Shown here in pieces: positions 14,714-40,991 of a stretch of 47,061 nucleotides of DNA (positions are counted from its first letter, which is position 1; each line of letters opens with the position of its first letter). A program made the position numbers and the translations under genes. The notes beneath the pieces were generated by a model. It saw only the letters and a list, made by a program, of their open reading frames with translations, searched no databases and was not told the DNA's origin. The DNA lies in the NCBI GenBank assembly GCA_039714795.1, contig JBDLIP010000002.1, positions 1 to 47,061 on the forward strand. The letters are read 5' to 3'. This DNA is from Pseudomonadota bacterium. GTDB lineage: Bacteria; Pseudomonadota; Alphaproteobacteria; JAGOMX01.

Positions 14714-15790
14714 TCAAATATTGGCGAGCTCTGGAATAGCCTCTCTAAGATTTGACACAAACCATTCAGGCAAAGGTTTGTGACGTCCATCTGCAACCAG
14801 TAACCCACGTGCAATTTCTGGATCCACCTTTACTAGATCAAGAAATATCTTTTTGCCTTGGCGAATAATTTGTGAATGTGATTCCATAATACCCATTTCA
14901 TTATCGGGTAATTCCTGTACTAAAAACTCACGGAACGTATGTGCCAAATAAATGAGCAAACCTCTGTCTTTATCCTTGTTTGGCCACTGGGCTTCACCCG
15001 CCATGATTGCAGCTATAGTGGGTTGATCGATGGCTTGCTCTAGTACTTCTACCTTAAACTGCCTGGCGTGTGGTAAAGACAAACAACCATAAGCAAGGGC
15101 TTCAACTTTAACCCTGTTTGCCTCACTCCCCATACGCTTTAACGCATTACTTAAAATGTGCCATGCACGGGGGGTCGAATAAGGTGTCTGGTCTTTTGTT
15201 GGTTCTTCCCATAACTGCTCCGGGTGCTCTCTAATATATTGGAGGATCAAAAAATGCAAATTGTTAGCTTCAGCCCATTCCATCCATTCATCAACTCGGG
15301 TTTCCATGTGCACATGGACAAGACGGTTAATCAAAGCTGAAGAGAGAGGGCGTGTAATAGAAACATCCTTGGGTCGGTTACCTGCACAAATAATGGCAGA
15401 ACCCGCAGGTAGTGTATAATCAGCAATACGTCTATCGTGAATAATACTGTAGAACGATTTTTGTACATCGGGCGAGCAAACATTGAACTCATCCAAAAAC
15501 AAGCAATAGGCGTTGTCTCTGGCGATAATTTTTGGCGGACAGAACTGCGAACGACCATCTGAAATTTGGGGAATACCCATCACATCTTCAGGCGCGAGTT
15601 GACTTCCCAAAAGTGAGACACATTCCAGTCCCATCTGCTCAGCAACACTTTCCACAATCGCTGATTTACCAATGCCTGGAGGTCCCCAAATAAAAACAGG
15701 GGAAGTTAACGTTACATCAAGAAGAAATTCTCTTAATTCTAGTGGTTTTAAAACAGGAAAGTCCTGATTTTCATAAAGTTCTTGAGCCAT
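14714..15790 (-). CDS. MoxR-like AAA+ ATPase (AAA_5-type), orphan
   Basis: Walker A WGPPGIGKS, Walker B CLFLDEFN, sensor-1 region IICAGNRP. Start taken at ATG 15790 (MAQELYENQ). Confidence 0.8.
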   Translation of the reverse strand: MAQELYENQDFPVLKPLELREFLLDVTLTSPVFIWGPPGIGKSAIVESVAEQMGLECVSLLGSQLAPEDVMGIPQISDGRSQFCPPKIIARDNAYCLFLDEFNVCSPDVQKSFYSIIHDRRIADYTLPAGSAIICAGNRPKDVSITRPLSSALINRLVHVHMETRVDEWMEWAEANNLHFLILQYIREHPEQLWEEPTKDQTPYSTPRAWHILSNALKRMGSEANRVKVEALAYGCLSLPHARQFKVEVLEQAIDQPTIAAIMAGEAQWPNKDKDRGLLIYLAHTFREFLVQELPDNEMGIMESHSQIIRQGKKIFLDLVKVDPEIARGLLVADGRHKPLPEWFVSNLREAIPELANI

Positions 15791-16072
15791 TGCGTATCCT
15801 CTTCGGAAAAATTCGTCCCTAAACAACAATGTACGCAAAGAGTGTGAAAAAAATATTAAATAAAAAAAGACACTCCCACGAATACATGAGAGTGGCAAGA
15901 ATTTTCTGCTTAAGTTAGTGCCATTGAACTACAAATCGACTTTTGACCTGGAATCCGCACAAATATTAAGTTGTTAAACCTTTTTCAGGGTTGTTTTAAG
16001 AAAATATTCGGATCTCTAATTGTATAATTCATGAAAATCAAATATCGTAAACATATTATACAGGAGAAACTA

Positions 16073-16603
16073 ATGAAAAATAAAAAAATTATTGTTATTG
16101 TAGCCACAATGGTTGCTTTAACTATATTTGGAAACGGATATGCAAAGTTTGAAAAAACTCCTTTCCCAAACATGCCACCAGAAATACAAAGCAATTTGTA
16201 CTATTTCTTGAGTGTTGTAGAGTATAAAGTAGAGCAAGTCAACCCAACTCAAAAAAATGATGAGAAAAAAGCAAAGATCACTGTGAAATTAACTGGAAAC
16301 CAAGCTAGTGTCATGACAGATCGCCCTTATCGAAAAACTGTGTCTACAACTGTTGAAAACTTCATTCATTACATTCAACGGCAAGAGAAAAAAGATCTCA
16401 ATCTCACACTGATGATCCACGGGAAGGACGATACTTACACTCCCATGTCTTTTGAACAAAATGGTGTCACCTACAATGCTCAGGATAAAACCATGACCTT
16501 TCAAGCAACACTTGTAGATTCAACAGCAACACAACAATGGATCAAGCACCCGGAAATGACAACAATCCAGGGGCGGTATACAACCTTAATGGCAGAGGGA
16601 TAA
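16073..16603 (+). CDS. secreted hypothetical protein (176 aa)
   Basis: The ATG at 16073 is preceded by AGGAGA. Signal peptide MKNKKIIVIVATMVALTIFGNGYA. No recognisable domain. The surrounding sequence is visibly A+T-rich. Confidence 0.55.
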   Translation: MKNKKIIVIVATMVALTIFGNGYAKFEKTPFPNMPPEIQSNLYYFLSVVEYKVEQVNPTQKNDEKKAKITVKLTGNQASVMTDRPYRKTVSTTVENFIHYIQRQEKKDLNLTLMIHGKDDTYTPMSFEQNGVTYNAQDKTMTFQATLVDSTATQQWIKHPEMTTIQGRYTTLMAEG

Positions 16604-16937: not shown

Positions 16938-18359
16938 TCATTTCAAACTCATCACATCCGATTCTTGAAAAAATCGATATTGTGCCTTGCCGCTGCGTTT
17001 GGCCTTATACATCGCCAAATCTGCATAGCGCAAACAAGACATTGAATCTACAGCTAGGTCTGGGCAAATAATGATGCCAACACTAACCCCTATTGATAAT
17101 GTCCTTCCATCATAGGTAAACCCTTGAGAGAAAATACGGATAATTCTTCGTGCCACTTCCTCAACATCCTTTTTCGAATCAAAACTGGGCAATAAAATGG
17201 CAAATTCATCGCCTCCAATTCGAGCGACTGTATCACCATCTCTGAGAACTTGCTGCAAATGCTGTGCAGTTACTTTTAACAGTACATCTCCAAAATCATG
17301 CCCCCACCGATCGTTCACCTGTTTAAATTCATCCAAATCCAAATACAGTACCGCAAATTGGCGTTTGTTACGTGGATATGTAGAGAAAATAGCTTCGAGC
17401 TTAGCCTCAAAGAGAGCTCTATTGACAAGGCCCGTTAGAGGATCGTGCCACGCCATGTACTCAAGATGTTGCTCCGCATTCTTATTGGACGTAACATCTT
17501 TATGTAAAGTCACGATCCCGCCATCAGCTGTGGCATTATTGATAACTTCAATCCAACGACCATCCCGAAAACGTTCAACGTAAGATTTAGACTTATTATA
17601 TTGATGCAGCCTTAAATCTATCCAACGCGTCAATCCATTTGAATTCTCCATCAAGCTCTGTTCGTTCTTACGCCGAGTAGAATTTTGCACACACTTTTCG
17701 TAATTCGAATACAGGAATGAATTGAGAGTCAAACCTTGTCCATCGACATTTTCGTCTAGCTCATATAAAGCTCTAAATTTTGAATTAGAGAACAACAATT
17801 CATGATTAGAGTCAAAAAGTGCAAATCCGGGTTCAAGACCTTCAATGGCTAATTTAAAGTATCTACGTGTTTCGCTTAATGCAGACAAAAGCTCATGCTC
17901 ATAAGCCACGTATCTTGTGCTCCTCATATAAAGTTGCAATCGTTTTTTAAGACATTCTTTGTGGAATGGTGGAGCAATATAATCCAAAACCAACTCCTGA
18001 AAAGAAGCAAGAGTTGCCGGATGAGTTTCTGAATCAATGACAAGAACAATCGGACTGATATGATCCTGGATTGTTTGAATTACTGACAACCCCTGCGATA
18101 TCCTTCCTCTTATATCGAGAAACAAAAGATCTAAAGGATTTTCTTGAACCATATGCAGTAGAGCATCCACATTATTTGTAAAATCTACCGCACAATTTTG
18201 TGTCTGCAAACAGTTCAATAAATCTACGTTATTGTTTCCACCTAGCTCAAGTATTGCAGACCTACATGTGTCCAAATCTAAGATTGGGGGAAGGTTTACA
18301 GGGAGAATTGTAGACCGAAAGGATTGTTTTTCATCGCCATGACACTTCATTGAATTCAC
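16938..18359 (-). CDS. diguanylate cyclase with degenerate receiver-like N-terminus and PAS domain
   Basis: Intact GGDEF A-site (ARIGGDEFAILL) with an RxxD I-site five residues upstream (RDGD). PAS-like segment FALFDSNHELLFSNSKFRALYEL. REC-like segment DLLFLDIRGRISQGLSVIQ. Confidence 0.88.
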   Translation of the reverse strand: MNSMKCHGDEKQSFRSTILPVNLPPILDLDTCRSAILELGGNNNVDLLNCLQTQNCAVDFTNNVDALLHMVQENPLDLLFLDIRGRISQGLSVIQTIQDHISPIVLVIDSETHPATLASFQELVLDYIAPPFHKECLKKRLQLYMRSTRYVAYEHELLSALSETRRYFKLAIEGLEPGFALFDSNHELLFSNSKFRALYELDENVDGQGLTLNSFLYSNYEKCVQNSTRRKNEQSLMENSNGLTRWIDLRLHQYNKSKSYVERFRDGRWIEVINNATADGGIVTLHKDVTSNKNAEQHLEYMAWHDPLTGLVNRALFEAKLEAIFSTYPRNKRQFAVLYLDLDEFKQVNDRWGHDFGDVLLKVTAQHLQQVLRDGDTVARIGGDEFAILLPSFDSKKDVEEVARRIIRIFSQGFTYDGRTLSIGVSVGIIICPDLAVDSMSCLRYADLAMYKAKRSGKAQYRFFQESDVMSLK

Positions 18360-18534: not shown

Positions 18535-20250
18535 ATGAACACCTACCACACGCAAAACCTTACACCAGATTTTGATTTTATTCAGACCCTCGTTGATGAG
18601 TGTCTGATTTCAAAGGCACAACTTGCCATTGCAAAAAAGGAGCACCGTGCCACTGGCAACACGATTGAATCGTGCCTGTTAAAACTTGGCTTCATCACCG
18701 AGCATGCGCTTGCAACTTACATTGCTAAACACTCTGGGCATGAGAAAATCTCGCTAGAGAACATTGTCCTAGACCCTGACCTAGTTGCAAAGATCCCAAA
18801 GAATATTGCTCAACAGCACCAAGTAGTTCCTGTGGCCTTAAATGAAAACCGCCTAACCCTTGCAATGGCTGATGTTTACGACGTGGTTGCCATGGATGCG
18901 GTACGCAATCATTTCTACCAGAGCATCAAAATACACCCCCTCGTTGCCAACCAAGGCGAGATGAAGATAACTCTAAATGCATACTACAACCACGATATGA
19001 ATCTTGAGCAGATCTTCCAGGAGCTTGAAAAACAAAGGGACGATTCTCTTTCTCGAGATACAAGCCTGAAAAACCCAATCACTCGTATGGTCAATATCAT
19101 CCTGCTTGAGGCGGTTAGCAAAAATGCATCTGATATTCATTTTCAACCCTCCAAATCATTTGTCTGCCTTAAGTTTCGGATCGATGGTGTCTTAGAACAA
19201 AGAACCGTCTTTCATAGCGATTACTGGCCTAAAATCTGTGTCCGACTCAAAATCATGGCCAAGATGAACATCGCTGAGTCACGTAAGCCGCAAAATGGAA
19301 GATTTACGTATAACGCAGGACTTCGAGCAGTTGATTTTCGAGTTTCCGTTCATCCCACACTGCAAGGAGAAAATATTGTCCTGCGTGTTCTTGATAAAGA
19401 AAACTCACTGTTACCCCTCAACCAACTCGGATTTTCAACCGCAAATATGGATCGCCTGAAAAATCTAGCCAATCAACCCCAAGGACTCGTTATCTTGACA
19501 GGACCTACGGGCACGGGCAAGACAACCACATTATATTCTATCCTCGCGTACCTAAACACAGCTCGCCGCAACATTATGACACTGGAAGATCCTATCGAAT
19601 ATCAAATCCCCTCAATTCGCCAATCAGCTATTAACCAAATGGGTGGAACAACCTTTGCTCAAGGAGTCCGCTCACTCTTAAGGCAAGATCCGGATATCAT
19701 TTTCGTTGGGGAAATACGCGATGAGGACACGGCAACCATGGCGCTGAGAGCAGTAATGACCGGCCACCAAGTCCTGACCACACTCCACACCCAAGACTCT
19801 TTTGGTGTTATCCCTCGTCTGGCTGATTTAGGAATTTCCCCGAAAAACTTGGCTGGCTATCTAACAGGTGTTGTCTCTCAGCGCCTGATACGATTGCTGT
19901 GCCAGACTTGCAAATCCCAACGTGCCATAACCAGATCTGAACAAAAAATATTAAAGCTTCATCTTGAGCAAAAGCTTTTTGCGGCCCAGGGGTGCGATGA
20001 GTGCAGGCACACTGGATTTAAAGGACGGACTGCAATTACAGAAGTCCTCCACTTTACAGAAGAGCTCAATGAGCTCCTCATTAACAATGCTCCTCTACCC
20101 AAATTGCGCAAAAAAGCCAAGCTGACTGGATTTAAAAACTTAAAACAACAGGGATTACAAAAAATCTTGGAAGGGAAAACAACCCTAAACGAATTAAAAC
20201 GTGTCATCAGCATTATTGAACCAAGTGAGGCAGACAATGCCAAGGTTTAA
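18535..20250 (+). CDS. GspE/PilB-family secretion ATPase
   Basis: 571 aa. N-terminal T2SSE_N-like domain, Walker A GPTGTGKTT, Asp box IMTLEDPIEY, Walker B DPDIIFVGEIRD, His box GHQVLTTLHT, and tetracysteine CQTC...CDEC. Confidence 0.93.
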   Translation: MNTYHTQNLTPDFDFIQTLVDECLISKAQLAIAKKEHRATGNTIESCLLKLGFITEHALATYIAKHSGHEKISLENIVLDPDLVAKIPKNIAQQHQVVPVALNENRLTLAMADVYDVVAMDAVRNHFYQSIKIHPLVANQGEMKITLNAYYNHDMNLEQIFQELEKQRDDSLSRDTSLKNPITRMVNIILLEAVSKNASDIHFQPSKSFVCLKFRIDGVLEQRTVFHSDYWPKICVRLKIMAKMNIAESRKPQNGRFTYNAGLRAVDFRVSVHPTLQGENIVLRVLDKENSLLPLNQLGFSTANMDRLKNLANQPQGLVILTGPTGTGKTTTLYSILAYLNTARRNIMTLEDPIEYQIPSIRQSAINQMGGTTFAQGVRSLLRQDPDIIFVGEIRDEDTATMALRAVMTGHQVLTTLHTQDSFGVIPRLADLGISPKNLAGYLTGVVSQRLIRLLCQTCKSQRAITRSEQKILKLHLEQKLFAAQGCDECRHTGFKGRTAITEVLHFTEELNELLINNAPLPKLRKKAKLTGFKNLKQQGLQKILEGKTTLNELKRVISIIEPSEADNAKV

Positions 20251-21448
20251 ATTCCGTTTTGTTACGACCTCTGGGGCCATTGATAATGCAATCCTTGAGG
20301 CAGCCTCTTATCAAGATCTCTTGGTATCACTACAACGTGAAAATGTACAACTAATTTATGCCAGGCGCCTTGTCTTGGATGTGTCTCCCTTCTGGCACAA
20401 ATATTGGACTGACTTCAAACCCGAGCTTATTGATTTTTGTCAATTTGCCGCAGCTATGGATAGAGCTGGTGTTGCCTTGCTGGATATCCTAAGTGATGCG
20501 CGCCATGTGGTCCAAAACAAAAGACTTGCTCAAGTCCTGCTTGAAATTCGCGCTCGTATCCAGGAAGGAGCTGCGTTATCGCAAGCGCTTGCACTTTTCC
20601 CCTACATCTTTGACTCCCCCTTCATTCAAATGATTCGCATCAGCGAACAAACCGGGCAATTGCACCAGGCTTTTGAGCATCTTGTTGAACATCTTGAGTG
20701 GGAAGTCAGTATAAAATCCAATCTGCATGCAACCCTTCGGTACCCTCTGCTTGTCATGCTAACGCTCGGAGTCACTTTTGTAGCATTATCCAATTTTCTC
20801 CTGCCAGAGTTGCAAGCTTTTCTCATTGCTACCCAAATCCAAACAGCATGGCACACTCAGCTTCTTTTCTATATTTTTGAACACACCGCAGATTTATTGC
20901 TTGTACTCTTTGCACCCTTGATTCTCACAACAATTCTGTGCGCCTTCCTGAGATACACATCTCAGCAATTTAGCTTATTTTCCGACCGACTGGTCCTTCG
21001 TATCCCCTTCCTGGGCGCATATCTCACCCACATTGCCCTGGCCCGTTTCTTCCACTATTTTTTCAGTACATTTGCTGCTGGAATTGATGTTTTGCAATGC
21101 CTAGAAGTTGCAATACATTTTCTCTCGAATCACTTTTTAGCCCATGAATTGAGTAGAGTTCGCCTTGCAATCGAATCAGGTGGCTCACTTGCTGAATCAT
21201 TTGCAAAAAGCTCCATCTGTTGTATCAGTACACAACGCTTACTCTATGCTGGAGAAACAACTGGTCAGTTGCAAGTATTTCTTGCCCGCATTCGAAACCT
21301 GCATGAAGCACAGTCCAAACGAAAGGTAAAATTTCTGATCTACAGTCTTGGACCCTGCTTACTGTTATTATCCGGTACTTTTCTGATGTGGATCGTCATG
21401 GCTATTTTTCAGCCCCTTTATACCTCATTCATTCTTCTGGAGCCTTAA
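20237..21448 (+). CDS. GspF/PilC-family inner-membrane platform protein
   Basis: About 403 aa with a duplicated T2SSF-like architecture and three or more hydrophobic segments. N-terminus FKFRFVTTSGAIDNAILEAAS is typical of the family. The ATG at 20237 overlaps the ATPase gene by 14 nt. Confidence 0.85.
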   Translation: MPRFKFRFVTTSGAIDNAILEAASYQDLLVSLQRENVQLIYARRLVLDVSPFWHKYWTDFKPELIDFCQFAAAMDRAGVALLDILSDARHVVQNKRLAQVLLEIRARIQEGAALSQALALFPYIFDSPFIQMIRISEQTGQLHQAFEHLVEHLEWEVSIKSNLHATLRYPLLVMLTLGVTFVALSNFLLPELQAFLIATQIQTAWHTQLLFYIFEHTADLLLVLFAPLILTTILCAFLRYTSQQFSLFSDRLVLRIPFLGAYLTHIALARFFHYFFSTFAAGIDVLQCLEVAIHFLSNHFLAHELSRVRLAIESGGSLAESFAKSSICCISTQRLLYAGETTGQLQVFLARIRNLHEAQSKRKVKFLIYSLGPCLLLLSGTFLMWIVMAIFQPLYTSFILLEP

Positions 21449-21451
21449 AAA

Positions 21452-22708
21452 ATGTTGCGTCCTAAATCAGGAATCATTCTCATTCTTCGTGAATACAATT
21501 GCACGATGCTACAATTTTCTCCCAATAATCCAGTTCACATTCGGCATGCAAATGAGCCTGAGTCTCTCTCAGATTATCTCAACCAACATCCCAATCTACC
21601 TCTCTATGTGCTGTTGGATCCTGTATATCAATCAATCGAACATTTTCCCTTGCCACCTCTAAAACCCTGGGATCGATACCTCTATTTACGTCAACTGCTT
21701 ACAAATCGTCAAACAGCAAACCAGTTGTGTGGCAATTTACCTGTTTGCAAACCCTACACAACAGCAGGATTCGTCACGTGTGAGAGGACTCAAGCGCTTA
21801 CAGCATGGCTAAAGTTGTTGGAAAAAACCTTGCACCCAATTATCGGTATCTCTTTCAAATGCATTGAAGCTCTCCATTGGCTCAAACGCGTTATACCCAC
21901 GTGGAATCAAAATTGGCATATCTTAATCTGTCCAGAGTATAGTCAGGGCCTTACACAACTTGCGTTTTATCAAGGGCAACTATGGGTAGTACGTCAAACA
22001 AGCAACCACGACGCCCAAGAAGAACTACAAGCGACACTCAACTATATTCGAAAACTCAAGCATACTTCAGCGCAACGAATCTCAGTCCACATCATGGACC
22101 AGGCAACGGCTGCTACTTCACTTTCTAAAATCTTAGGCCCACAAACAACGTGCGACTATATAGATTGCCCAAAATACCTTGAAAGCGATATAGGTAATTT
22201 ACCAGAGCAAAAATTCATACTAGATACAGCTATTAGCACCAGTCTGTGGCATGCTAGAGGTCCAAATACCCACGTAAAAGTTACTGAACTTGCAAGCAAA
22301 AAACGACTTTATACGCTACCACGATATATGCTGTCGATGGGATCCAGCCTGATGATATTATTTTTACTCGGCCTTGGTTGGATGCAACAAAGTCAAGAAA
22401 TAGTAACACCAACAGCTTCCTCACATGTATCAATTTCTGCTACCTGCAGGAAGTTTAATCTGAGTCAAATTACGCCTATGCGACAACTCAAGGCAATTGC
22501 ACCCGTTTTGAACTCCACGGGCTTGATAAAAATTCAGTGGGAAAATACCGCAGGTGGCAGCCACATTAAATTGCTGATGGATGTAAGCGATAAAAACACC
22601 CTGCGCAATTTGAAGAAAATCCAAAAACAGCTTGACCAAAAAGTACCAGAAGCGACGTTACAACTAAGACCAGTAAAAAATCTTAAGCTTATGGATACAC
22701 AAATCTGA
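21452..22708 (+). CDS. hypothetical bitopic protein, PilM-PilN fusion-like or GspL-like
   Basis: About 290 aa cytoplasmic region, one TM helix at about residues 293-311 (MLSMGSSLMILFLLGLGWM), and about 105 aa periplasmic. The cytoplasmic part shows actin-fold-like strand patterns (GIILILRE, LYVLLDP, IIGISFKCIEAL, WHILICPEYSQGLTQLAFYQGQLWVVRQ). Starts 3 nt after the platform gene stop. Confidence 0.6.
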   Translation: MLRPKSGIILILREYNCTMLQFSPNNPVHIRHANEPESLSDYLNQHPNLPLYVLLDPVYQSIEHFPLPPLKPWDRYLYLRQLLTNRQTANQLCGNLPVCKPYTTAGFVTCERTQALTAWLKLLEKTLHPIIGISFKCIEALHWLKRVIPTWNQNWHILICPEYSQGLTQLAFYQGQLWVVRQTSNHDAQEELQATLNYIRKLKHTSAQRISVHIMDQATAATSLSKILGPQTTCDYIDCPKYLESDIGNLPEQKFILDTAISTSLWHARGPNTHVKVTELASKKRLYTLPRYMLSMGSSLMILFLLGLGWMQQSQEIVTPTASSHVSISATCRKFNLSQITPMRQLKAIAPVLNSTGLIKIQWENTAGGSHIKLLMDVSDKNTLRNLKKIQKQLDQKVPEATLQLRPVKNLKLMDTQI

Positions 22709-23157
22709 TGTGGAGACAATATTGGTTAGCCTGCCTCATATGCTTTGGCGCCCTGCCCACAGCCGGTTACTACTTCTGCTTGATCGCATGGGGTAGTCAG
22801 CACAAAAAGGAAGTTCTAAACACATTGCCTGAGACTCCAAATTCCCAACTCATCGTTGAAACACTGAAATCAATGCTGAAAGATTTTGAACTCACAGAAA
22901 AATCTATCCATGTCGACACTATACCAAAATATCAATTGACAGTTTTTAAGATTGATATCTCTTTTACTGCAATCTATGACAATGATGTCTATAGATTTCT
23001 CCACCAACTTTTTGGGCGGTTTCCCGAAACAGTTACCGCTAAAACCCTCAAACTCAAACGCACTTCACTTGGAAAACAAATTGAAAAGGCACCATTGTCT
23101 GATCACGTTGCTGGTTATCTCCAGTTGTATTGGATACAGCCACCACTTGTTCAATGA
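22708..23157 (+). CDS. hypothetical bitopic protein, PilO/GspM-like by size and topology
   Basis: 149 aa with an N-terminal TM helix (YWLACLICFGALPTAGYYFCLIAW). The start overlaps the upstream stop as TGATG. Confidence 0.5.
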   Translation: MWRQYWLACLICFGALPTAGYYFCLIAWGSQHKKEVLNTLPETPNSQLIVETLKSMLKDFELTEKSIHVDTIPKYQLTVFKIDISFTAIYDNDVYRFLHQLFGRFPETVTAKTLKLKRTSLGKQIEKAPLSDHVAGYLQLYWIQPPLVQ

Positions 23158-23588
23158 AGTTTTCAATGAAGTTAACGCAGCAACTCGTTGTGCTTATCTT
23201 AGCCACTCTTTCCTCATTTCCCACTGAAGCAACTGTCTTCTTAGGAAAAGCCCTTGATTTTACTGATAAAGATGATTTTTCTCTCCTGTTTACCCCGGAA
23301 GAGCAATACCAAATCAAAAGTACAAACCGCAGGGCACACATTCGTGCAAAAACACCAATTCACCAAGCCAAACAGCTGCACCTCAATGCTGTTTTATATG
23401 TGGATGAAAACAACTGGACCATTTGGATCAATGGACATAAAATCACTCCCAATTCTCCAAATGTTCACCTGATCATTCACAAAGTATCATCCGAACACAT
23501 CCTGTGTACTTGGAAGCATACAACACAAAATTACGAGGTAGAGTTACGAACAAACCAAATGTTTAAGGTTAATGCAGTACATCAGTGA
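23154..23588 (+). CDS. secreted hypothetical protein, PilP/GspC-HR-like
   Basis: The start overlaps the upstream stop as ATGA. Signal peptide MKFSMKLTQQLVVLILATLSSFPTEA. The C-terminal beta-rich block LHLNAVLYVDENNWTIWINGHKITPNSPNVHLIIHKVSSEHILCTW resembles the secretin-contacting PilP/GspC HR fold pattern. Confidence 0.5.
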   Translation: MKFSMKLTQQLVVLILATLSSFPTEATVFLGKALDFTDKDDFSLLFTPEEQYQIKSTNRRAHIRAKTPIHQAKQLHLNAVLYVDENNWTIWINGHKITPNSPNVHLIIHKVSSEHILCTWKHTTQNYEVELRTNQMFKVNAVHQ

Positions 23589-23623: not shown

Positions 23624-23920
23624 AACGTCGAAGAGCTAAAAATATTCGGTGTTTCTCGATCTCTGACATATCGTTGGATACGTGACGAGGCTGAAGTCTC
23701 TGGTGATATTACCGAAGTAGAATTTGATGAGATGTGGCGTTTTGTTGGTTCAAAAAAAAACAAAAAATGGATTATCAAAGCGGTAGATAGTGGCACAGGG
23801 CGAACTTTGGCCTGGGTTGTCGGGCAGCCTTGATGCTGCAACTTTCAGGCGACCCTACAACAAAGTGAAGCATTCAGAAAACTGCACTTTTTGGGATAGT
23901 TCAAACGCCATGCCGAGGCT
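23624..23920 (+). pseudogene. IS1-family transposase remnant (frameshifted and truncated)
   Basis: Frame 1 reads ELKIFGVSRSLTYRWIRDEAEVSGDITEVEFDEMWRFVGSKKNKKWIIKAVDSGTGRTLAWVVGQP then stops. After a frameshift it reads DAATFRRPYNKVKHSENCTFWDSSNAMPRL. This gives an HTH plus the DEMW.FVGSKK..W first-Asp region typical of IS1-type transposases. The rest is missing, and the fragment abuts the folC stop. Confidence 0.7.
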
Positions 23921-25143
23921 TAAGCTGAATGATGGAACCCTTCCTGCAGCACCCGAAGGGCCTGTCCCACAAGCATCAATGAACCACAGATCAAAATAGT
24001 TTGTGTGTTTGACTTGGTGTTCTGCGCTTGTGTAAGTGCAGCTTGGAAATCACCAAACACATGAGCCTTCAGTCCGATTTTCTTTGCTATATCCCTTATT
24101 TTGTGCGGTGGCCACGTGGGTTGGAAAGTGTTTAAAGGCACACAGTAGATATACCGAATCACATCTTTGAGTGCCAACAAAAATTCTTTTGGATCTTTTG
24201 TTTGGGTCATTGCAAGAATCAGAGTAAGGTTATCAATACCCGAATTTTTAAAATGTTTTGTGATAGCTTTAGCAGCTCCTACATTATGGGCTCCATCGAG
24301 CCAGAGTTTATCTGTAATTTTTTGCAGACGGCCTGGCCATTGTGCATGTTTGAGGCCATGAGCTTGCATCTCAGGGGTAAGCGTCACCTGGGGGATATTT
24401 TCAAGAACATGGACGGCCAGTGCGGCATTTTCTCGTTGAAACTGGCCTTTAAGGCCAATGAGTGCGCCTTTATTCAATGGTGGGGCAACAGATAAAAGTC
24501 CTCCAGATTCTCGCTGCAGAATATTCATTATGTTCTTTCGTTGGGGATAGGTAAAAGCAGGTGTGTTATTTCGGAAAATACCTGCTTTTTCTTGGGCGAT
24601 TTTGGTAAGCGTATCGCCCAATATGTGGGTATGGTCATAATCAACTTGTGTAATAACAGAAGCGACTGTATGTTTAATGATATTGGTAGGATCACACCGT
24701 CCTCCAAGGCCAACTTCAGCCAAGCAAAAATCCGCTGGGGTGTTTGCAAAAGCGACAAATGCAGCAGCTGTTATAACTTCAAAAAAGGTATAGGGCTGAT
24801 CTGGATTTACTTTGAGAATCTCTGCAAGAATGTTGCATAACTCTTGGGTGTTGATGGGACCATCCGGCATAGCAATACGTTCGTTGATATCGATTAAATG
24901 CGGAGAGGTATAGCTGTGCACGCGGTAATTGCTGGCCTCAAGCATGGCTCTCATAAACGCAACGACTGATCCTTTTCCGTTGGTTCCAGCCACATGAATG
25001 ACTGGTGGGACGTGGTTTTGAGGATTACCAAGCTGATTTAAAAGAGCTCTCATGCGGACGAGATCTTTGGACTGTTTTAAAGCAGCGCAATGCCGTTCAA
25101 GTATTTTTCCAACGAGAGACTGCAAATCTGAAGAATCGTTCAC
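23920..25143 (-). CDS. folC: bifunctional folylpolyglutamate synthase/dihydrofolate synthase
   Basis: 407 aa. P-loop HVAGTNGKGS. Lies downstream of accD, the conserved accD-folC pair. Confidence 0.93.
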   Translation of the reverse strand: MNDSSDLQSLVGKILERHCAALKQSKDLVRMRALLNQLGNPQNHVPPVIHVAGTNGKGSVVAFMRAMLEASNYRVHSYTSPHLIDINERIAMPDGPINTQELCNILAEILKVNPDQPYTFFEVITAAAFVAFANTPADFCLAEVGLGGRCDPTNIIKHTVASVITQVDYDHTHILGDTLTKIAQEKAGIFRNNTPAFTYPQRKNIMNILQRESGGLLSVAPPLNKGALIGLKGQFQRENAALAVHVLENIPQVTLTPEMQAHGLKHAQWPGRLQKITDKLWLDGAHNVGAAKAITKHFKNSGIDNLTLILAMTQTKDPKEFLLALKDVIRYIYCVPLNTFQPTWPPHKIRDIAKKIGLKAHVFGDFQAALTQAQNTKSNTQTILICGSLMLVGQALRVLQEGFHHSA

Positions 25144-25146
25144 AAC

Positions 25147-25998
25147 TTACGATTGGCGCAAAAGTTTTAAGAGCACACCAAGGGTGTTTTTAAGGTCCGC
25201 GCGAGCGACCACGCGGTCAACCATGCCATGTTCAAGCAAATACTCTGCCGTTTGAAAGTTGGGTGGTAGTTGGGTGCCGATGGTTTCTTTGATGACACGG
25301 GGACCTGCAAAGCCAATCATTGCTCCCGGTTCGGCAAGTGTTATATCTCCAAGCATAGCAAAGGAAGCAGCCACTCCACCACTGGTGGGGTCAGCAAGCA
25401 CTGTGATATAGGGCAGCCCTTTTTCTTTGACCTGAGAGATAGCAATGGTTGTTCTGGCCATTTGCATCAAAGAAAGGATCCCTTCGTGCATACGAGCACC
25501 GCCTGATGCGGGGATGACCACTAGGGCAGCTTTGCTGGCTTGTGCTGCTTCAGCAGCAGTGACAATAGCTTCACCGACAGCCGTGCCCATAGAGCCTCCT
25601 ATAAAAGCAAAGTTGAAAGCAGCAATGATGACCTTTTGACCACTTATTTTACCACGCCCTACTTGGATGGCATCTTTGGTATTTGTTTTGTTTTTGGCTT
25701 GCTTGAGTCTATCTGAATATTTCTTTTGATCCTTGAAATGTAAAGGATCAGTAATTACAGCTGGTAGTTTGAGGACTGTGTACTGGCTATCATCAAACAA
25801 GCTTTGTAAGCGGTCTTTGCTATCCATTCGAAAATGATGGTTACAAAGTTTACAAACTTGCAGATTATCATTGAGCTCTCTGTGGAACAGCATCTGCTCG
25901 CATCCAGAACAACGAGTCCAAAGATTGTCAGGGATGTCTGCTTTAACTAGGGCCCTTAACTTTGGGCGCACAATATTGGTCAGCCAACTCATATCCAA
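25147..25998 (-). CDS. accD: acetyl-CoA carboxylase carboxyltransferase subunit beta
   Basis: N-terminal zinc ribbon CSGCEQ...CKLCNHH and the carboxyltransferase block GGSMG...GGARMHEG. Confidence 0.96.
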   Translation of the reverse strand: MDMSWLTNIVRPKLRALVKADIPDNLWTRCSGCEQMLFHRELNDNLQVCKLCNHHFRMDSKDRLQSLFDDSQYTVLKLPAVITDPLHFKDQKKYSDRLKQAKNKTNTKDAIQVGRGKISGQKVIIAAFNFAFIGGSMGTAVGEAIVTAAEAAQASKAALVVIPASGGARMHEGILSLMQMARTTIAISQVKEKGLPYITVLADPTSGGVAASFAMLGDITLAEPGAMIGFAGPRVIKETIGTQLPPNFQTAEYLLEHGMVDRVVARADLKNTLGVLLKLLRQS

Positions 25999-32230: not shown

Positions 32231-32335
32231 ATAATTACTCTTCACATTACAAAACGTTTTATGCTCTAATTGCTGTAGAATCCACATTTTAAAATTTGAT
32301 GGGTATGAAAACAACAAATAATACAGGTGACTATA

Positions 32336-33466
32336 ATGTCGACTCAAGCATGGGTCACTTTTGAACGAAAGAAAAATGTATTGGAAGTTCGAGCTGGAGG
32401 TGATTGGCACACCACTGGAGTCGAAGAGTCATATCGTAAACTTGAGCAACACCAGTTGCAAGGAGAGGCGACTTATATCATTGACCTGTCAGGCATTAAA
32501 TCCATTGATACAACGGGTAGCTGGATTCTTAAGGCTTTTATTCAAAGATTGGAGGCAAGTAACATTGCTGTCTCCTTAACTGGAGTCGGAGAAACAGTCC
32601 AAAGCATTTTGCAACAGCTCGACAAGCTTAAGTTTTCCATTCCCAAGCCTCCTTCCCAACCTAGCTTATACCTTAAATGGTTGATTGTTCTTGGTATTGC
32701 GGCAATTAAGGGGGGGATAAATGCCTTTAATATGCTCTCTTTTCTAGGACAGATTGTCATCACACTGGGGCGAACGATCTGTTCCCCACACCGGTTTCGC
32801 TTGATTTCATTTGTGGCAATGCTTGAGCAAGTTGGGTTGCGTGCTATGCCTATTGTAGGGCTCATCTCGTTCTTACTCGGCATCGTTATTATCTATCAAG
32901 GACAATATCAGCTGCGTCGTTTCGGAGCCGAGATTTTTGCAGTTGACCTCTTAGCCATCTCTATGCTGCGTGAGATTGGTATTTTAATTACCGCTATTGT
33001 TATCGCTGGTCGCTCTGGAAGTGCTTTTACAGCCCAGATCGGCACTATGAAGCTGAATCAAGAAATTGATGCTCTGCAAACATTTGGCGTCGATCCCATT
33101 GAAGCCCTTGTGGTTCCTCGATTGTTGGCCTTGATGATAGCTCTGCCGCTTCTAGCATTTTATGCAAACATAATGGGCTTGCTGGGTGGTGCTCTTATGG
33201 CCAACTTGGTTATTGAGATCTCTTATAGTCAGTTTTGGATTCAGCTCAAGCAAGCAATCAAATTGTGGACTTTTGGAGTTGGTATGATAAAAGCCCCCAT
33301 GTTCGCCTTTATCATTGCCATGGTTGGTTGTTTTGAAGGCATGCAAGTGGCAGGAGGGGCCAAAAGTATTGGAACGAAAACAACAAAATCGGTTGTTGAA
33401 GGTATATTTCTAGTCATCGTTTTTAATGCAGTATTCTCCATCATCTTTACCTTGCTGGGAATATGA
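32336..33466 (+). CDS. MlaE-family ABC permease with N-terminal STAS-like domain
   Basis: The N-terminal ~100 aa resemble an anti-sigma-antagonist/STAS fold (LEVRAGGDW...YIIDLSGIKSIDTTGSWIL). The C-terminal part is an MlaE-like permease with 5-6 TM helices. Start taken at ATG 32336; an alternative GTG lies at 32327. Confidence 0.85.
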   Translation: MSTQAWVTFERKKNVLEVRAGGDWHTTGVEESYRKLEQHQLQGEATYIIDLSGIKSIDTTGSWILKAFIQRLEASNIAVSLTGVGETVQSILQQLDKLKFSIPKPPSQPSLYLKWLIVLGIAAIKGGINAFNMLSFLGQIVITLGRTICSPHRFRLISFVAMLEQVGLRAMPIVGLISFLLGIVIIYQGQYQLRRFGAEIFAVDLLAISMLREIGILITAIVIAGRSGSAFTAQIGTMKLNQEIDALQTFGVDPIEALVVPRLLALMIALPLLAFYANIMGLLGGALMANLVIEISYSQFWIQLKQAIKLWTFGVGMIKAPMFAFIIAMVGCFEGMQVAGGAKSIGTKTTKSVVEGIFLVIVFNAVFSIIFTLLGI

Positions 33467-33469
33467 ATA

Positions 33470-34225
33470 GTGGCACGAGAAATCATTCTAAGCATTAAGA
33501 ATTTGGTTAATCGATTTGGTGCTCAAGTTGTTCACGACAATCTATGTCTTGATGTATACCGCGGGGAGATATTAGGCGTCGTTGGGGGATCTGGAACCGG
33601 AAAATCTGTTTTACTCAATACTATTCTTGGGCTACACCAGCCAAATCAGGGATCCATAACGATCTTTGATGTTGAGTGTTCGGGCCTTTACCGTCCACAG
33701 CGTATTGAATCAAGGTGGGGAGTGCTGTTTCAAAGTGGAGCTTTATTTAGTTCAATGACTGTCGGAGAAAATATTGCCGTTCCTATGCGGGAAATAGCAC
33801 ATATGTCGGAAGATTTGATTGAAGAAATGATTCCCGTCAAATTAACAATGGTTGGTCTTGATCCAGAAACGGCATTCAAATTGCCAGAAGAACTTTCTGG
33901 AGGCATGGTCAAACGTGCTGCTCTTGCGCGCGCTCTTGCCATTGATGCAGAATTATTGTTTCTCGATGAGCCCACTTCTGGGCTTGATCCAATTGGGGCA
34001 ACCGCTTTTGACAAATTAATTAAAGCATTGCAACAAACTCTTAACCTAACAGTTGTTATGATTACACACGATCTGGACTCACTGCATGCCATCTGTGATC
34101 GAATAGCTATCCTGGTTGACAAAAAAATTATTGTCGACTCAACGGCAAAGATACAGACCAATCCACACCCTTGGATTCAAGAGTACTTCATGGGAGAACG
34201 TGGTCAGATCGTCTTTGGGAGATAA
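33470..34225 (+). CDS. MlaF-like ABC transporter ATP-binding protein
   Basis: Walker A GGSGTGKS, signature LSGGMVKRAALARAL, Walker B LLFLDEPTSGLD. GTG start. Confidence 0.93.
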   Translation: MAREIILSIKNLVNRFGAQVVHDNLCLDVYRGEILGVVGGSGTGKSVLLNTILGLHQPNQGSITIFDVECSGLYRPQRIESRWGVLFQSGALFSSMTVGENIAVPMREIAHMSEDLIEEMIPVKLTMVGLDPETAFKLPEELSGGMVKRAALARALAIDAELLFLDEPTSGLDPIGATAFDKLIKALQQTLNLTVVMITHDLDSLHAICDRIAILVDKKIIVDSTAKIQTNPHPWIQEYFMGERGQIVFGR

Positions 34226-34231
34226 AATTAA

Positions 34232-35068
34232 GTGGAAACACGTGCAAACTACGCTCTTGTCGGATTTTTCGTTCTCACTTTGTTGATTGGAATTCTGGGC
34301 TTTACTGTCTGGATTTCACGAGTAGACTGGACGCAGGGAAGTATTTACGAAATTAACTTTGAAGGCTCCGTTGCCGGCCTTCGAGAAAATGAAACAGTGA
34401 CCTATAATGGGGTTCCCATTGGCAGTGTCATGAGCATTGCAGTCAATCCAGAAAAAGTGAACCTGATCCGAGTGCTGGTTGAAATTGACCGACCAAGTTT
34501 GATCCGGGAAAACTCATTTGCTACCCTGCAAGGACGAGGTATCACTGGCCAAATCCAAATCAAGATTGATGGCAGTACTCCAGATAGTCCGATTCTTTTA
34601 TCCTCTGAAAGTCAAAAGCCCCCTGAAATCCCCTCCCGAACCTCTGGGTTTCAACAAGTCATCGAAGAGGCTCCCCGAATCATGGAAAAACTTATCCGAC
34701 TAGTTAACGATGTCACTCCAGTCTTCAATGAGAAAAACCGAGAGGCATTTGCCAGCACACTTGAAAATTTTGCAACCTTTTCCGAGATTCTCGCCAAAGA
34801 ATCGCAAAACATGGCCGAACTCTTGACCCAAACAAAACAGTCCTTTAAACAGTTCGAAGAGGCAATGCAAGAAATGAAAAAGATGATTGCTGAAAATCGA
34901 CCTGCGATCAAGCAATTTACCGAGGGTGGTCTGAAGGAATTTTCAAGCTTCATGCAAGAGTGGCGGGTTGCGGCCAAAAACCTTAACCGCGTGGTTGAAA
35001 AATTTGAGCGTAATCCTCTGCAATTTATTGTACACAGCGACCTTGGTGGTCAGGAATTAAGTGAGTAA
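34232..35068 (+). CDS. MlaD/MCE-domain protein
   Basis: N-terminal anchor METRANYALVGFFVLTLLIGILGFTVWI, then an MCE domain (GLRENETVTYNGVPIGSV) and a helical C-terminus. GTG start. Confidence 0.88.
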   Translation: METRANYALVGFFVLTLLIGILGFTVWISRVDWTQGSIYEINFEGSVAGLRENETVTYNGVPIGSVMSIAVNPEKVNLIRVLVEIDRPSLIRENSFATLQGRGITGQIQIKIDGSTPDSPILLSSESQKPPEIPSRTSGFQQVIEEAPRIMEKLIRLVNDVTPVFNEKNREAFASTLENFATFSEILAKESQNMAELLTQTKQSFKQFEEAMQEMKKMIAENRPAIKQFTEGGLKEFSSFMQEWRVAAKNLNRVVEKFERNPLQFIVHSDLGGQELSE

Positions 35069-35071
35069 ATC

Positions 35072-35722
35072 GTGAGAAACAGAACCTTTGTTTATGCTCT
35101 ATACCTAATGATCTTATCCCTGCTCAGTGGTTGCGTTCAGGTATTGCCAGATCCTGCACCGCCCGCGCAAATCTATAATCTCTCGGTAGATGTTACAACA
35201 AATAAAAAGTGGCCCAATCGCAACTGGCAACTAAGCGTTGCCCAACCGTCGACAAGCCTTATGCTCGATTCCCAAAGGATTGCCATTCGCTTTCAAGAAA
35301 CGCCCGACTCACCAAAAACATGGGATTACGTAAAAGAAAGAAAATGGATTGAGCGGTTGCCTAGTATGCTGCAAGAGGATTTTATAGAGCAACTGACAAA
35401 CACCCAAAAACTAAAAGGAGTTGTCAAAGATACAGTCGCGCTAAATGCAGACTACCTATTGCTAGCAACGCTGTATGAATTTCACATTGATAATCCTTTT
35501 GCAAGCCCTGCCTTTGTCTCTTTGCGCCTTCTTATGCAACTGCGCGACAATGAAACTCAAAAAATTGTGGCTTCAAAAGTATTTTGGCAAAAGCAAACTG
35601 TTCTTGAAAAGAATTTCCCAGCTTTTAAAAAGGCTTTTGATCAAGCCTATAGTCTTCTCGTTCAAGATTTTCTTGACTGGATTTTGACAGTGAATTTAAA
35701 GAGCAAAGCGCAGACTGGATGA
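35072..35722 (+). CDS. ABC-type transport auxiliary lipoprotein (PqiC/DUF330-like)
   Basis: Lipobox LLSGC. 216 aa. Sits as the fourth gene of the MCE operon, as is typical in alphaproteobacteria. Contains the IYNL...LSV pattern. Confidence 0.7.
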   Translation: MRNRTFVYALYLMILSLLSGCVQVLPDPAPPAQIYNLSVDVTTNKKWPNRNWQLSVAQPSTSLMLDSQRIAIRFQETPDSPKTWDYVKERKWIERLPSMLQEDFIEQLTNTQKLKGVVKDTVALNADYLLLATLYEFHIDNPFASPAFVSLRLLMQLRDNETQKIVASKVFWQKQTVLEKNFPAFKKAFDQAYSLLVQDFLDWILTVNLKSKAQTG

Positions 35723-35879: not shown

Positions 35880-36767
35880 TTGGAACCAACGCTTAAGAAC
35901 CTGAAACTTGTTTATGGCACTGGAGACGATGTTTCTTTTATCATCCGGTATTTCGAAGATTTTTACCGAGAAATCATCCGTTTCAAAAATGAAGCCTTGG
36001 GTGATCAACTACCTCCAAGTAACTTAGACCAAGAAGAGGAAGGAAAAAGTGCACCAGAGACGAATGAGCCAGTAAAACCTGAAATAAAAACCGATCAGAC
36101 TCCTGAATCTCCTATTCAACCCGCATCTCATGCTTCGCTTCCTGAAGAAATCCTTTTGAGTCTGAAAAATCTGCTAAAACGACAAGCTATTGATGCAGCG
36201 CGCTTTGGTGGCGAATTTGCAGCAAAATATTACCACGAAGCCGAGTTTATCATGGTCGCACTTGCTGATGAGGTTTTTTTGCATACCGATTGGAAAGGAA
36301 AGGGGTATTGGCAAAAAAATATCCTTGAATCTCAAATATATGACACACACAGCGCTGGCGAAACATTTTTTGATAAGCTTGAAGATTTTTTAAAAGTACG
36401 TGACCCAAGTCGCGCTGATATTGCTATGGTCTATCTGCTGGCTTTGGGGCTTGGATTTAAAGGAAAATACCGTGATAATGACGCCAAAAACCGGTTGGCT
36501 CATTATCGTCGTGAACTCTTTATCTTTATCTACCATCGTGATCCCACATTGTTTCAGCTGGCAACCCAACTCATTCCCAAATCATACCAACACACCGTTG
36601 AAACCGGTAAAGTTCTATACCTTTATGATTTTAAACCTCTCATGAAACTGTTTACTGGAATCGTCTTCTTGGTATTTTTGATTTCGTACGGTGTTTGGTA
36701 TAGCACAACCCACGAAGTCAGTGTTTTGGTTGATCAAATCCTCAGCTCTGGACCCTCAACGATATGA
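35880..36767 (+). CDS. tssL: type VI secretion TssL / DotU(IcmH)-family protein
   Basis: DotU pattern EAEFIMVALADEVFL...DIAMVYLLALGLGFKGKY. Single C-terminal TM helix (LFTGIVFLVFLISYGVWY). TTG start 7 nt after AAGGA. The stop overlaps the tssM start as ATGA. Confidence 0.85.
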   Translation: MEPTLKNLKLVYGTGDDVSFIIRYFEDFYREIIRFKNEALGDQLPPSNLDQEEEGKSAPETNEPVKPEIKTDQTPESPIQPASHASLPEEILLSLKNLLKRQAIDAARFGGEFAAKYYHEAEFIMVALADEVFLHTDWKGKGYWQKNILESQIYDTHSAGETFFDKLEDFLKVRDPSRADIAMVYLLALGLGFKGKYRDNDAKNRLAHYRRELFIFIYHRDPTLFQLATQLIPKSYQHTVETGKVLYLYDFKPLMKLFTGIVFLVFLISYGVWYSTTHEVSVLVDQILSSGPSTI

Positions 36768-40987: not shown

Positions 40988-40991
40988 AATT

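Follow-up and report, generated by a model that had tools for sequence, protein, structure and literature searches.

The mannose-sensitive hemagglutinin (MSHA) pilus of Vibrio cholerae is encoded by mshI-J-K-L-M-N-E-G-F plus mshB-Q. MshI has been described as a GspL-like protein of the PilN superfamily and MshJ as PilO-like (PMC4624765, Table 1), and the cyclic di-GMP-binding MshEN domain of the MshE ATPase has the motif RLGxxL...Q, of which R9 is required (PMC4624772). Denise et al. (2019; PMC6668835) give MSH systems a mandatory set of mshA, mshE, mshG, and mshL together with mshM, usually at a single locus and without a prepilin peptidase, and report them only from Gammaproteobacteria, Chrysiogenetes, and Epsilonproteobacteria, the word "Alphaproteobacteria" being absent from the main text. 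Type IVa pilus (T4aP) genes are normally scattered over several loci, and 884 systems were left "generic" in the same study (PMC6668835). Here we describe a locus in 47,061 bp of alphaproteobacterial DNA (GTDB lineage JAGOMX01; GenBank assembly GCA_039714795.1, contig JBDLIP010000002.1), referred to below as the window; it is apparently the whole contig, and absences cover these 47 kb only. The window carries an operon of five co-directional open reading frames (ORFs), labeled E, F, X, Y, and Z (Table 1), which probably codes for core components, cytoplasmic and inner-membrane, of a machine that resembles a type IV pilus and belongs to a widespread, uncharacterized proteobacterial clade related to MSHA and T4aP, with partners most likely encoded elsewhere in the genome.

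The five genes are tightly coupled, with a 14-nt overlap between E and F, a 3-nt gap between F and X, and the junctions TGATG (X/Y) and ATGA (Y/Z). An identical 7-kb Logan contig (L001; SRR27843388) with an independent gene call has identical genes, including the F start at 20237, except that Z starts at 23166 (12 nt later). Directly 3' of Z is a frameshifted remnant of an IS1-family transposase spanning model positions 64 to 155 of 199 (48.8 bits against an NCBIfam cut-off of 100), which forms the downstream edge of the operon and is a sign of local rearrangement. A promoter and terminator scan returned site numbers no higher than in shuffled sequence and is uninformative on operon boundaries.

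The ATPase E matches Pfam T2SSE (PF00437; 405.6 bits) and MshEN (PF05157; 55.8 bits), and scores 484.5 bits against the NCBIfam PilB model (TIGR02538) and 477.4 bits against the GspE model (TIGR02533), under the respective cut-offs of 675.65 and 630.25. Its PDB matches (1e-114 to 1e-97 overall) are headed over the full length by PilF and PilB (1e-114 to 1e-107), with GspE next (1e-100). The Walker A motif, the Asp box, the Walker B motif, and the His box, together with C456, C459, C487, and C490, do not vary among 13 aligned ATPases of the clade. F matches Pfam T2SSF (PF00482; 132.9 bits) in two repeats and scores 168 bits with NCBIfam GspF (TIGR02120) and 129.6 bits with PilC, below the respective cut-offs of 424 and 700. 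E and F are thus confirmed as the ATPase and the GspF/PilC-family platform of a system belonging to the superfamily of type IV filaments (TFF). Membership in the type IVb pilus or Tad groups was rejected, as E scores 125 bits against BfpD and 52 to 56 bits against TadA/VirB11 models, compared with about 480 for PilB and GspE. X, Y, and Z match nothing near a curated cut-off in Pfam, with a few chance-level matches (E 0.007 to 0.24), and nothing in NCBIfam even at E values up to 1. An earlier note on this DNA had described a coupled five-gene operon with an intact set of ATPase catalytic boxes and zinc-binding cysteines, a GspF/PilC platform, and three downstream proteins without recognizable motifs, and all of these observations are borne out.

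Relatives of X are difficult to recover. A word-indexed search with X finds only two (62% and 48% identity) and one using a 55-sequence X profile only three; an exhaustive profile search finds 51, mostly via residues 35 to 215, and a scan of genome contigs with close X sequences gave no match. An AlphaFold2 (AF2) model built on a 53-sequence alignment has a mean predicted local distance difference test (pLDDT) score of 85.2 and a predicted template-modeling (pTM) score of 0.73; an earlier model on three sequences (pLDDT 39.8) was discarded. The model predicts a cytoplasmic, actin-like, mixed alpha/beta domain at about residues 1 to 270, a long transmembrane or stalk helix (278 to 313), a second helix (322 to 337), and a periplasmic alpha-beta-beta-alpha-beta-beta domain (343 to 417). 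Foldseek aligns it with the GspL cytoplasmic domains of Vibrio vulnificus (4pht_Y, 9.3e-10), V. cholerae EpsL (1yf5, 6.8e-9), and Klebsiella PulL (5tkw, 2.5e-8), a fold-level match only, with E values of 9e-10 to 5e-8 and target-normalized TM-scores of 0.50 to 0.62. PilM structures from Thermus thermophilus (2ych_A, 2.1e-8), Pseudomonas aeruginosa (5eou), and Myxococcus xanthus (3jc8_Ma) are also matched, followed by FtsA. The X family profile finds M. xanthus PilN (3jc8_Na, E 0.0013) in the PDB, and in hhalign comparisons the C-terminal half of X aligns with Firmicutes PilN (88.8% probability, P 2.5e-6; a profile of six proteins from type IV pilus loci, the studied Streptococcus sanguinis locus included) and with Escherichia coli HofN (64%, P 6.4e-5). 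The N-terminal domain is weakly similar to Firmicutes PilM by sequence (P 0.008), its PilM likeness being resolved by structure alone, and X aligns with an E. coli GspL sequence profile at P 0.024 only. Together, the GspL/PilM fold and the three PilN profile links identify X, with good support, as a bitopic GspL-type protein, the equivalent of a PilM-PilN fusion.

Iterated profiles place the Y family directly downstream of X in 44 ORFs and the Z family downstream of Y in 42 ORFs. Y aligns with the C-terminal half of X (hhalign probability 76.5%, P 2.2e-5) and with PilN (49%, P 1.7e-4), which fits a PilO/GspM-type partner; 1 of 34 members matches Pfam T2SSM (E 0.03), and a sequence-profile search of the PDB gave chance-level matches only. 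The assignment of Y as a PilN/PilO-type paralogue of the X C-terminal half is moderately supported, and it would be the probable periplasmic partner of that domain. The Z family has a conserved core, L.lnG....W.W.NG, and Z has no PDZ domain; among 28 members, one matches T2SSC (2e-5) and one T2SSB (2.1e-5). Profile comparisons of Z with the PDB and by hhalign lend no support, with chance-level matches only, and hhalign alignments of Y with E. coli GspM and HofO and of Z with GspC, GspB, and HofP are not significant (P 0.02 to 0.5). From its position, topology, and the two Pfam matches, Z is a weakly supported candidate for a connector to the secretin of the PilP, GspC-HR, GspB, or MshK type. 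The proposal in the earlier note that the three proteins mirror PilM-PilN or GspL, PilO or GspM, and PilP or GspC is therefore upheld by fold and profile searches for X, moderately so for Y, and weakly for Z.

ATPases 46 to 50% identical to E are common in alphaproteobacterial metagenome-assembled genomes (MAGs) and in Limimonas halophila, and their contigs repeat the five-gene order, the X, Y, and Z proteins there being larger. A scan across representative genomes of GTDB gave 80 loci, and in about 45 of the 90 loci profiled in total the X profile matches the ORF directly after E-F. These are in Alphaproteobacteria (Rhodovibrionaceae, Rhodospirillaceae, Limimonas, and three "Rickettsiales" MAGs), Betaproteobacteria (Undibacterium, Janthinobacterium, Thiobacillus, Accumulibacter, Gallionella, and others), Gammaproteobacteria (Thiomicrospira, Thiomicrorhabdus, and Thiotrichaceae), and Magnetococcales. 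Eighty-five ATPases were placed in a neighbor-joining (NJ) tree with E. coli GspE, the sole classical type II secretion system (T2SS) reference, as the root. In this tree all X-linked loci form one clade (100/100 bootstrap), the exceptions to X linkage within it being truncated contigs, a few loci in which X is not recognized (for example, L029 and L047), and one in which it falls below threshold (L068). The alphaproteobacterial subclade that includes the window has 99/100 support, and within it the window, L002, L003, and L005 share a long branch (100/100). The only locus with a classical MSH-like I-J-L-M-N-E order (L080) lies outside the X-linked clade. The E-F-X-Y-Z order, which the earlier note had found to match neither the canonical T2SS order nor the T4aP arrangement, is thus shared by a wide clade, although we found no description of it, or of the X, Y, and Z families, in the open-access literature.

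The relatives show what surrounds this core in a complete system. The betaproteobacterial and gammaproteobacterial layout is constant, with genes for an AAA_22 protein, a secretin, and a tetratricopeptide repeat (TPR) protein followed by E-F-X-Y-Z, a large protein, and at least one N_methyl pilin. The secretin is upstream of E in most of these loci that have enough upstream sequence, and in the alphaproteobacterial locus L017. L036 has an ExeA/GspA-like AAA+ protein and a secretin whose highest score is with MshL (226.8 bits, cut-off 250.2), ahead of GspD (150.1) and PilQ (94.2), and the L036 ATPase passes an MshE-related cyclic di-GMP (c-di-GMP) motif model (46.2 bits, cut-off 38). L017 has TPR, AAA+, A24 peptidase, and MshL-like secretin genes (MshL 214.8 bits versus GspD 129.3) within 10 kb upstream, plus a pilin. 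A24 peptidases are also present in L011 and in the Limimonas locus L009, which has pilins with clear G-F-T/S-L-hydrophobic-E N termini, and further pilins are in L036 and many betaproteobacterial and gammaproteobacterial loci. L007 codes for AAA+ and TPR proteins and a PilT-family ATPase (451 bits, cut-off 319), and L012 for a TPR protein and two PilT/PilU-family ATPases above the curated cut-off. The clade thus has all the parts of a type IV filament system, with accessory genes like those of MSH, and the adjacent retraction ATPases point to a retractile pilus rather than a secretion pseudopilus.

In such a machine, as in known systems, a hexameric E would power the platform F, which would lift pilin subunits from the inner membrane into the growing fiber. 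The cytoplasmic actin-like domain of X would clamp the ATPase to the membrane while X pairs with the PilN/PilO-type Y in the periplasm, and Z would probably connect X-Y with a secretin in the outer membrane. Genes for the pilins, the peptidase, the MshL-like secretin, and the ExeA-like and TPR proteins would most likely lie elsewhere, in a multi-locus arrangement like that of T4aP.

The accessory set of the clade, which comprises ExeA-like, MshL-like, TPR, and GspL-like proteins, is closest to MSH among named systems. The MshEN-type ATPase N-terminal domain, the platform, and the succession of a GspL-like/PilN-superfamily protein (MshI), a PilO-like protein (MshJ), and a small protein (MshK) are all as in MSHA, and the relatives add ExeA/MshM-like AAA+ and MshN-like TPR proteins and a secretin for which MshL is the best curated model. 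The gene order differs, however, being (M-L-N)-E-G-I-J-K in the clade and I-J-K-L-M-N-E-G in MSHA; the window is E-G-I-J-K-like, and L017 departs further with TPR-AAA-peptidase-secretin upstream. The secretins of the relatives score under the MshL cut-off, X, Y, and Z match no model in Pfam or NCBIfam, and some relatives have a prepilin peptidase in the locus. The window itself lacks L, M, and N genes and pilins, and has only E- and G-like genes from the mandatory MSH set. Similarities with T4aP include the PilF and PilB matches of E, the PilM fold and PilN-like C-terminal half of X, the PilT-family ATPases beside relatives' blocks, and the multi-locus organization. In contrast to T4aP, the PilM and PilN equivalents are fused in X as they are in GspL, the alignment genes directly follow the pilB-pilC pair rather than forming a pilMNOPQ cluster with a secretin, no secretin is adjacent, and the ExeA-like and TPR genes of the relatives are not part of T4aP.

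It is also conceivable that the clade is T2SS-like and not a pilus, with E-F-X-Y-Z corresponding to GspE-F-L-M-C, a short pseudopilus expelling folded proteins through the secretin, and the ExeA-like protein assisting secretin assembly in the manner of GspA/B. Structurally, X most resembles the cytoplasmic domains of GspL and has the same fused bitopic architecture, the E-F...L-M order is colinear, E scores almost equally with GspE (477 bits) and PilB (484 bits), Z family members match T2SSC and T2SSB, and the pilins of the relatives score best, albeit weakly and via their N termini, with GspG and GspH; the relatives' GspA-like AAA+ proteins also recall the E. coli T2SS locus, which has gspA and gspB. 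We note, however, that PilT/PilU-family ATPases sit beside the block in the alphaproteobacterial loci L007 and L012, and retraction ATPases are not known as T2SS components. The relatives' secretins prefer MshL over GspD, their downstream pilins are long (240 to 470 aa), there is no five-gene GspG-K pseudopilin block between F and L, no PDZ-bearing GspC, and no GspD-type secretin, and both the GspE and GspF equivalog cut-offs are missed. A T2SS-like clade is thus quite unlikely, and a pilus is the preferred reading of its output.

The window departs from its relatives in what it lacks. There is no class III signal-peptide motif in the six frames of the window, no secretin or A24 peptidase among 42 ORFs scanned against Pfam (nearly all non-overlapping ORFs of at least 110 aa, an AccD-like ORF having been left out), and no match in the window to profiles of the relatives' secretin, peptidase, ExeA-like AAA+, and TPR proteins. 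The earlier note was therefore correct that no prepilin, prepilin peptidase, or secretin gene is in the operon or its flanks, but this is not the hallmark of a new subtype, as relatives carry all three beside the same block and the absence reflects locus splitting, or loss, in the lineage of the window. Its suggestion of a previously unclassified subtype holds insofar as the ATPase reaches neither the PilB nor the GspE cut-off and belongs to a clade with full bootstrap support whose members have the E-F-X-Y-Z order in common; the missing parts are not a property of that subtype. In the window's subclade (four contigs) the block is always on its own save for a divergent PAS-GGDEF gene, and since the closest relatives likewise lack the downstream partners, the split predates the IS1 insertion in the window.

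Several observations weigh against the core of a pilus with partners elsewhere. No pilin, peptidase, secretin, PilT, ExeA-like, or TPR gene is present in the window, none of them is present on the 9- to 16-kb contigs of the three closest relatives either, and their location elsewhere in the genome is an assumption. X, Y, and Z have 418, 149, and 144 aa in the window compared with about 520 to 570, 200 to 230, and 140 to 190 aa in most relatives, and the window ATPase is on a long branch of the NJ tree; both could reflect reduction. The assignment of Z is weakly supported, and the proposed relation to named TFF clades draws on hidden Markov model scores and accessory genes. E scores 32.5 bits with the c-di-GMP motif model NF053729, under its cut-off of 38, and has Phe at the equivalent of MshE R9, with F-I-Q and H at the R-L-G and Q positions.

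Alternatively, this host-associated lineage may have lost the secretin, pilins, and accessory genes, so that E-F-X-Y-Z would operate with no conduit through the outer membrane, perhaps as a pseudopilus in the periplasm or as a device for export or uptake at the inner membrane, or would be heading for loss. Neither the window nor any contig of its subclade carries the partner genes, X, Y, and Z are reduced in length, the ATPase has a long branch, and the IS1 remnant abuts the operon; a TLC-family ATP/ADP translocase on the contig of a close relative (L005) hints at an intracellular or host-associated lifestyle and a reduced genome, and a Rickettsiales locus (L029) keeps only E, F, and one ORF that is not recognized. 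However, the five genes have all stayed intact in each of four diverged lineages, where ATPase identity falls as low as 55%, and are under purifying selection. Ratios of nonsynonymous to synonymous substitution rates (dN/dS) in comparisons with L002 and L003/L004 are 0.05 to 0.11 for E, 0.15 to 0.17 for F, 0.17 to 0.22 for X, 0.23 to 0.34 for Y, and 0.07 for Z, values that are rough, with dS near or beyond saturation, yet far from neutrality. They argue against a decaying remnant, a possibility that the earlier note had raised and that is now disfavored, and for a maintained function in which Z is still needed. Contigs of 9 to 47 kb also cannot prove genome-wide absence, and distribution over several loci is the normal arrangement for T4aP (Denise et al. 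2019; PMC6668835). An orphaned or repurposed core is thus unlikely, and we favor a split locus over a new secretin-less machine, the missing genes reflecting distribution within the lineage or possibly loss, with a small residual chance that this lineage truly runs the core without a secretin.

The window's subclade has a dedicated regulatory neighbor. A divergent PAS-GGDEF gene is conserved upstream of E in L002, L003/L004, and L005/L006, and is found there only in this subclade. The window cyclase has an intact GGDEF motif and an RxxD I-site, as read from the translation, and a dN/dS of 0.14 versus L002. The N-terminal 165 residues of E can be aligned with the MshEN-type domain in PilB, in PilF, and in MshE of V. 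cholerae (5htl, E 3.3e-9), and score higher with Geobacter and Myxococcus PilB (57.9 to 66.7 bits) than with MshE (40 bits). R/K-L-G and Q are retained at the corresponding positions by most of the clade. Among close relatives of the window, P0004 has F-V-Q and P0005 has F-I-Q, both retaining the Q, and P0006 is also degenerate. The subclade with the dedicated cyclase thus appears, from these alignments, to have lost the canonical binding arginine. The conserved cyclase suggests c-di-GMP-linked control, though the canonical MshEN arginine is missing. It is very unlikely, in our estimate, that this core has been split from any secretin and canonical pilins and is kept by selection for another job, such as a periplasmic or inner-membrane filament device, in a rare and probably host-associated lineage; if so, signaling would have been rewired, for example through direct contact between the diguanylate cyclase and the ATPase or a new binding mode.

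These results are primarily of value for annotation and classification. For the genome of the window, we read the operon as a functioning component of a bigger apparatus and not as evidence for a secretin-less system. Dozens of proteobacterial genomes have X, Y, and Z beside an ATPase of the PilB/GspE type, and since neither Pfam nor NCBIfam has a model for any of the three, automated annotation and TFF classifiers see these loci as having no alignment subcomplex. Identifying X as a GspL/MshI-type PilM-PilN fusion and Y as its PilN/PilO-type partner fills that gap, and gives a coherent MSH-related clade with its own gene order that reaches into Alphaproteobacteria and Rickettsiales-like MAGs.

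Table 1. Coordinates of features in the window and on related contigs
Feature	Source	Position	Strand	Description
E	Window	18535..20250	+	PilB/GspE/MshE-type assembly ATPase, 571 aa, N-terminal MshEN-type domain
F	Window	20237..21448	+	GspF/PilC/MshG-type polytopic inner-membrane platform, 403 aa
X	Window	21452..22708	+	GspL-like/PilM-PilN-fusion (MshI-like) bitopic alignment protein, 418 aa
Y	Window	22708..23157	+	Putative small bitopic PilN/PilO/GspM-class protein, 149 aa, N-terminal transmembrane segment
Z	Window	23154..23588	+	Predicted secreted small protein, 144 aa, signal-peptide-like N terminus
Diguanylate cyclase	Window	16938..18359	-	REC-PAS-GGDEF; Pfam GGDEF 156 bits, PAS_7 59, Response_reg 30
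IS1-family transposase remnant	Window	23639..23990	+	Frameshifted; three-frame translation, NCBIfam IS1 transposase E 7.6e-13
MoxR-like AAA+ ATPase (AAA_5)	Window	14714-15898	-	Between housekeeping genes and diguanylate cyclase
190-aa secreted protein	Window	16031-16603	+	No family match; between housekeeping genes and diguanylate cyclase
AccD-like ORF	Window	25147-25998		Left out of Pfam scan
Mla-type operon	Window	32327-35722		Type VI secretion system (T6SS) genes directly after (35880-42107)
DotU/TssL	Window	35880-36767	+	T6SS gene
IcmF/TssM-like	Window	36764-40987	+	T6SS gene, 1407 aa
ImpA/TssA	Window	40992-42107	+	T6SS gene
Divergent PAS-GGDEF homologue	L002	2550-3965		Upstream of E
Divergent PAS-GGDEF homologue	L003	788-1732		Upstream of E
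Divergent PAS-GGDEF homologue	L004	771-2195		Upstream of E
Divergent PAS-GGDEF homologue	L005	3447-4460		Upstream of E
TLC-family ATP/ADP translocase	L005	13493-14881		Few kb from operon
ABC-2-type ATPase	L007	15818-16543
ABC-2-type ATPase	L009	16178-16915
ABC-2-type ATPase	L012	16204-16938
ABC-2-type ATPase	L013	16374-17099
ABC-2-type ATPase	L017	15927-16781 and 6248-7015
ABC-2-type ATPase	L032	18972-19739
ABC-2-type ATPase	L048	15048-15815
Large protein	L036	15546-18842		Between Z and first pilin gene
Large protein	L021, L025, L026, L044, L045, L048, L049, L051			400-700-aa ORFs
Reduced locus (possible)	L029	9056-14253		Rickettsiales chromosome OZ253531.1
Two X-profile ORFs	L046	2727-5597 and 6751-8397		Magnetococcales MAG; E 1e-27 and 7e-35

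Other genes recur around the relatives' blocks. A gene for an ABC-2-type (DrrA/GldA-like) ATPase comes after Z in all alphaproteobacterial relatives other than those of the window's subclade, which suggests that an ABC transporter goes with this pilus clade; the window lacks such a gene and has the IS1 remnant in its place. The large protein encoded between Z and the first pilin gene in most betaproteobacterial and gammaproteobacterial loci has no Pfam or NCBIfam match, and in L048 it starts with a hydrophobic pilin-like segment, GSALLIMLTIIGIGAAFLL; it may be a large minor pilin or tip protein. Small membrane proteins with a YTLLEALRNR-type N terminus also recur near these loci. In L029, a member of the alphaproteobacterial ATPase subclade, an 876-aa ATPase ORF (a stop-to-stop call, possibly extended at the N terminus) is accompanied by a platform gene and a single ORF of 363 aa that matches no family, and X, Y, and Z are not recognizable; this may be a further reduced version of the system. 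Both L046 ORFs match the X profile, suggesting that a GspL-like gene is duplicated or that ORF calling has artificially fused the platform with X.

The rest of the window is ordinary chromosome, with nuo genes, hda, pgsA, pepA, ndk, folC, a major facilitator superfamily (MFS) gene, uppP, xseA, an Mla operon, and three T6SS genes. The window holds no T6SS core genes beyond these, making the locus a partial or split one. The interval between the housekeeping genes and the diguanylate cyclase codes for a MoxR-like AAA+ ATPase and a small secreted protein on opposite strands (Table 1).

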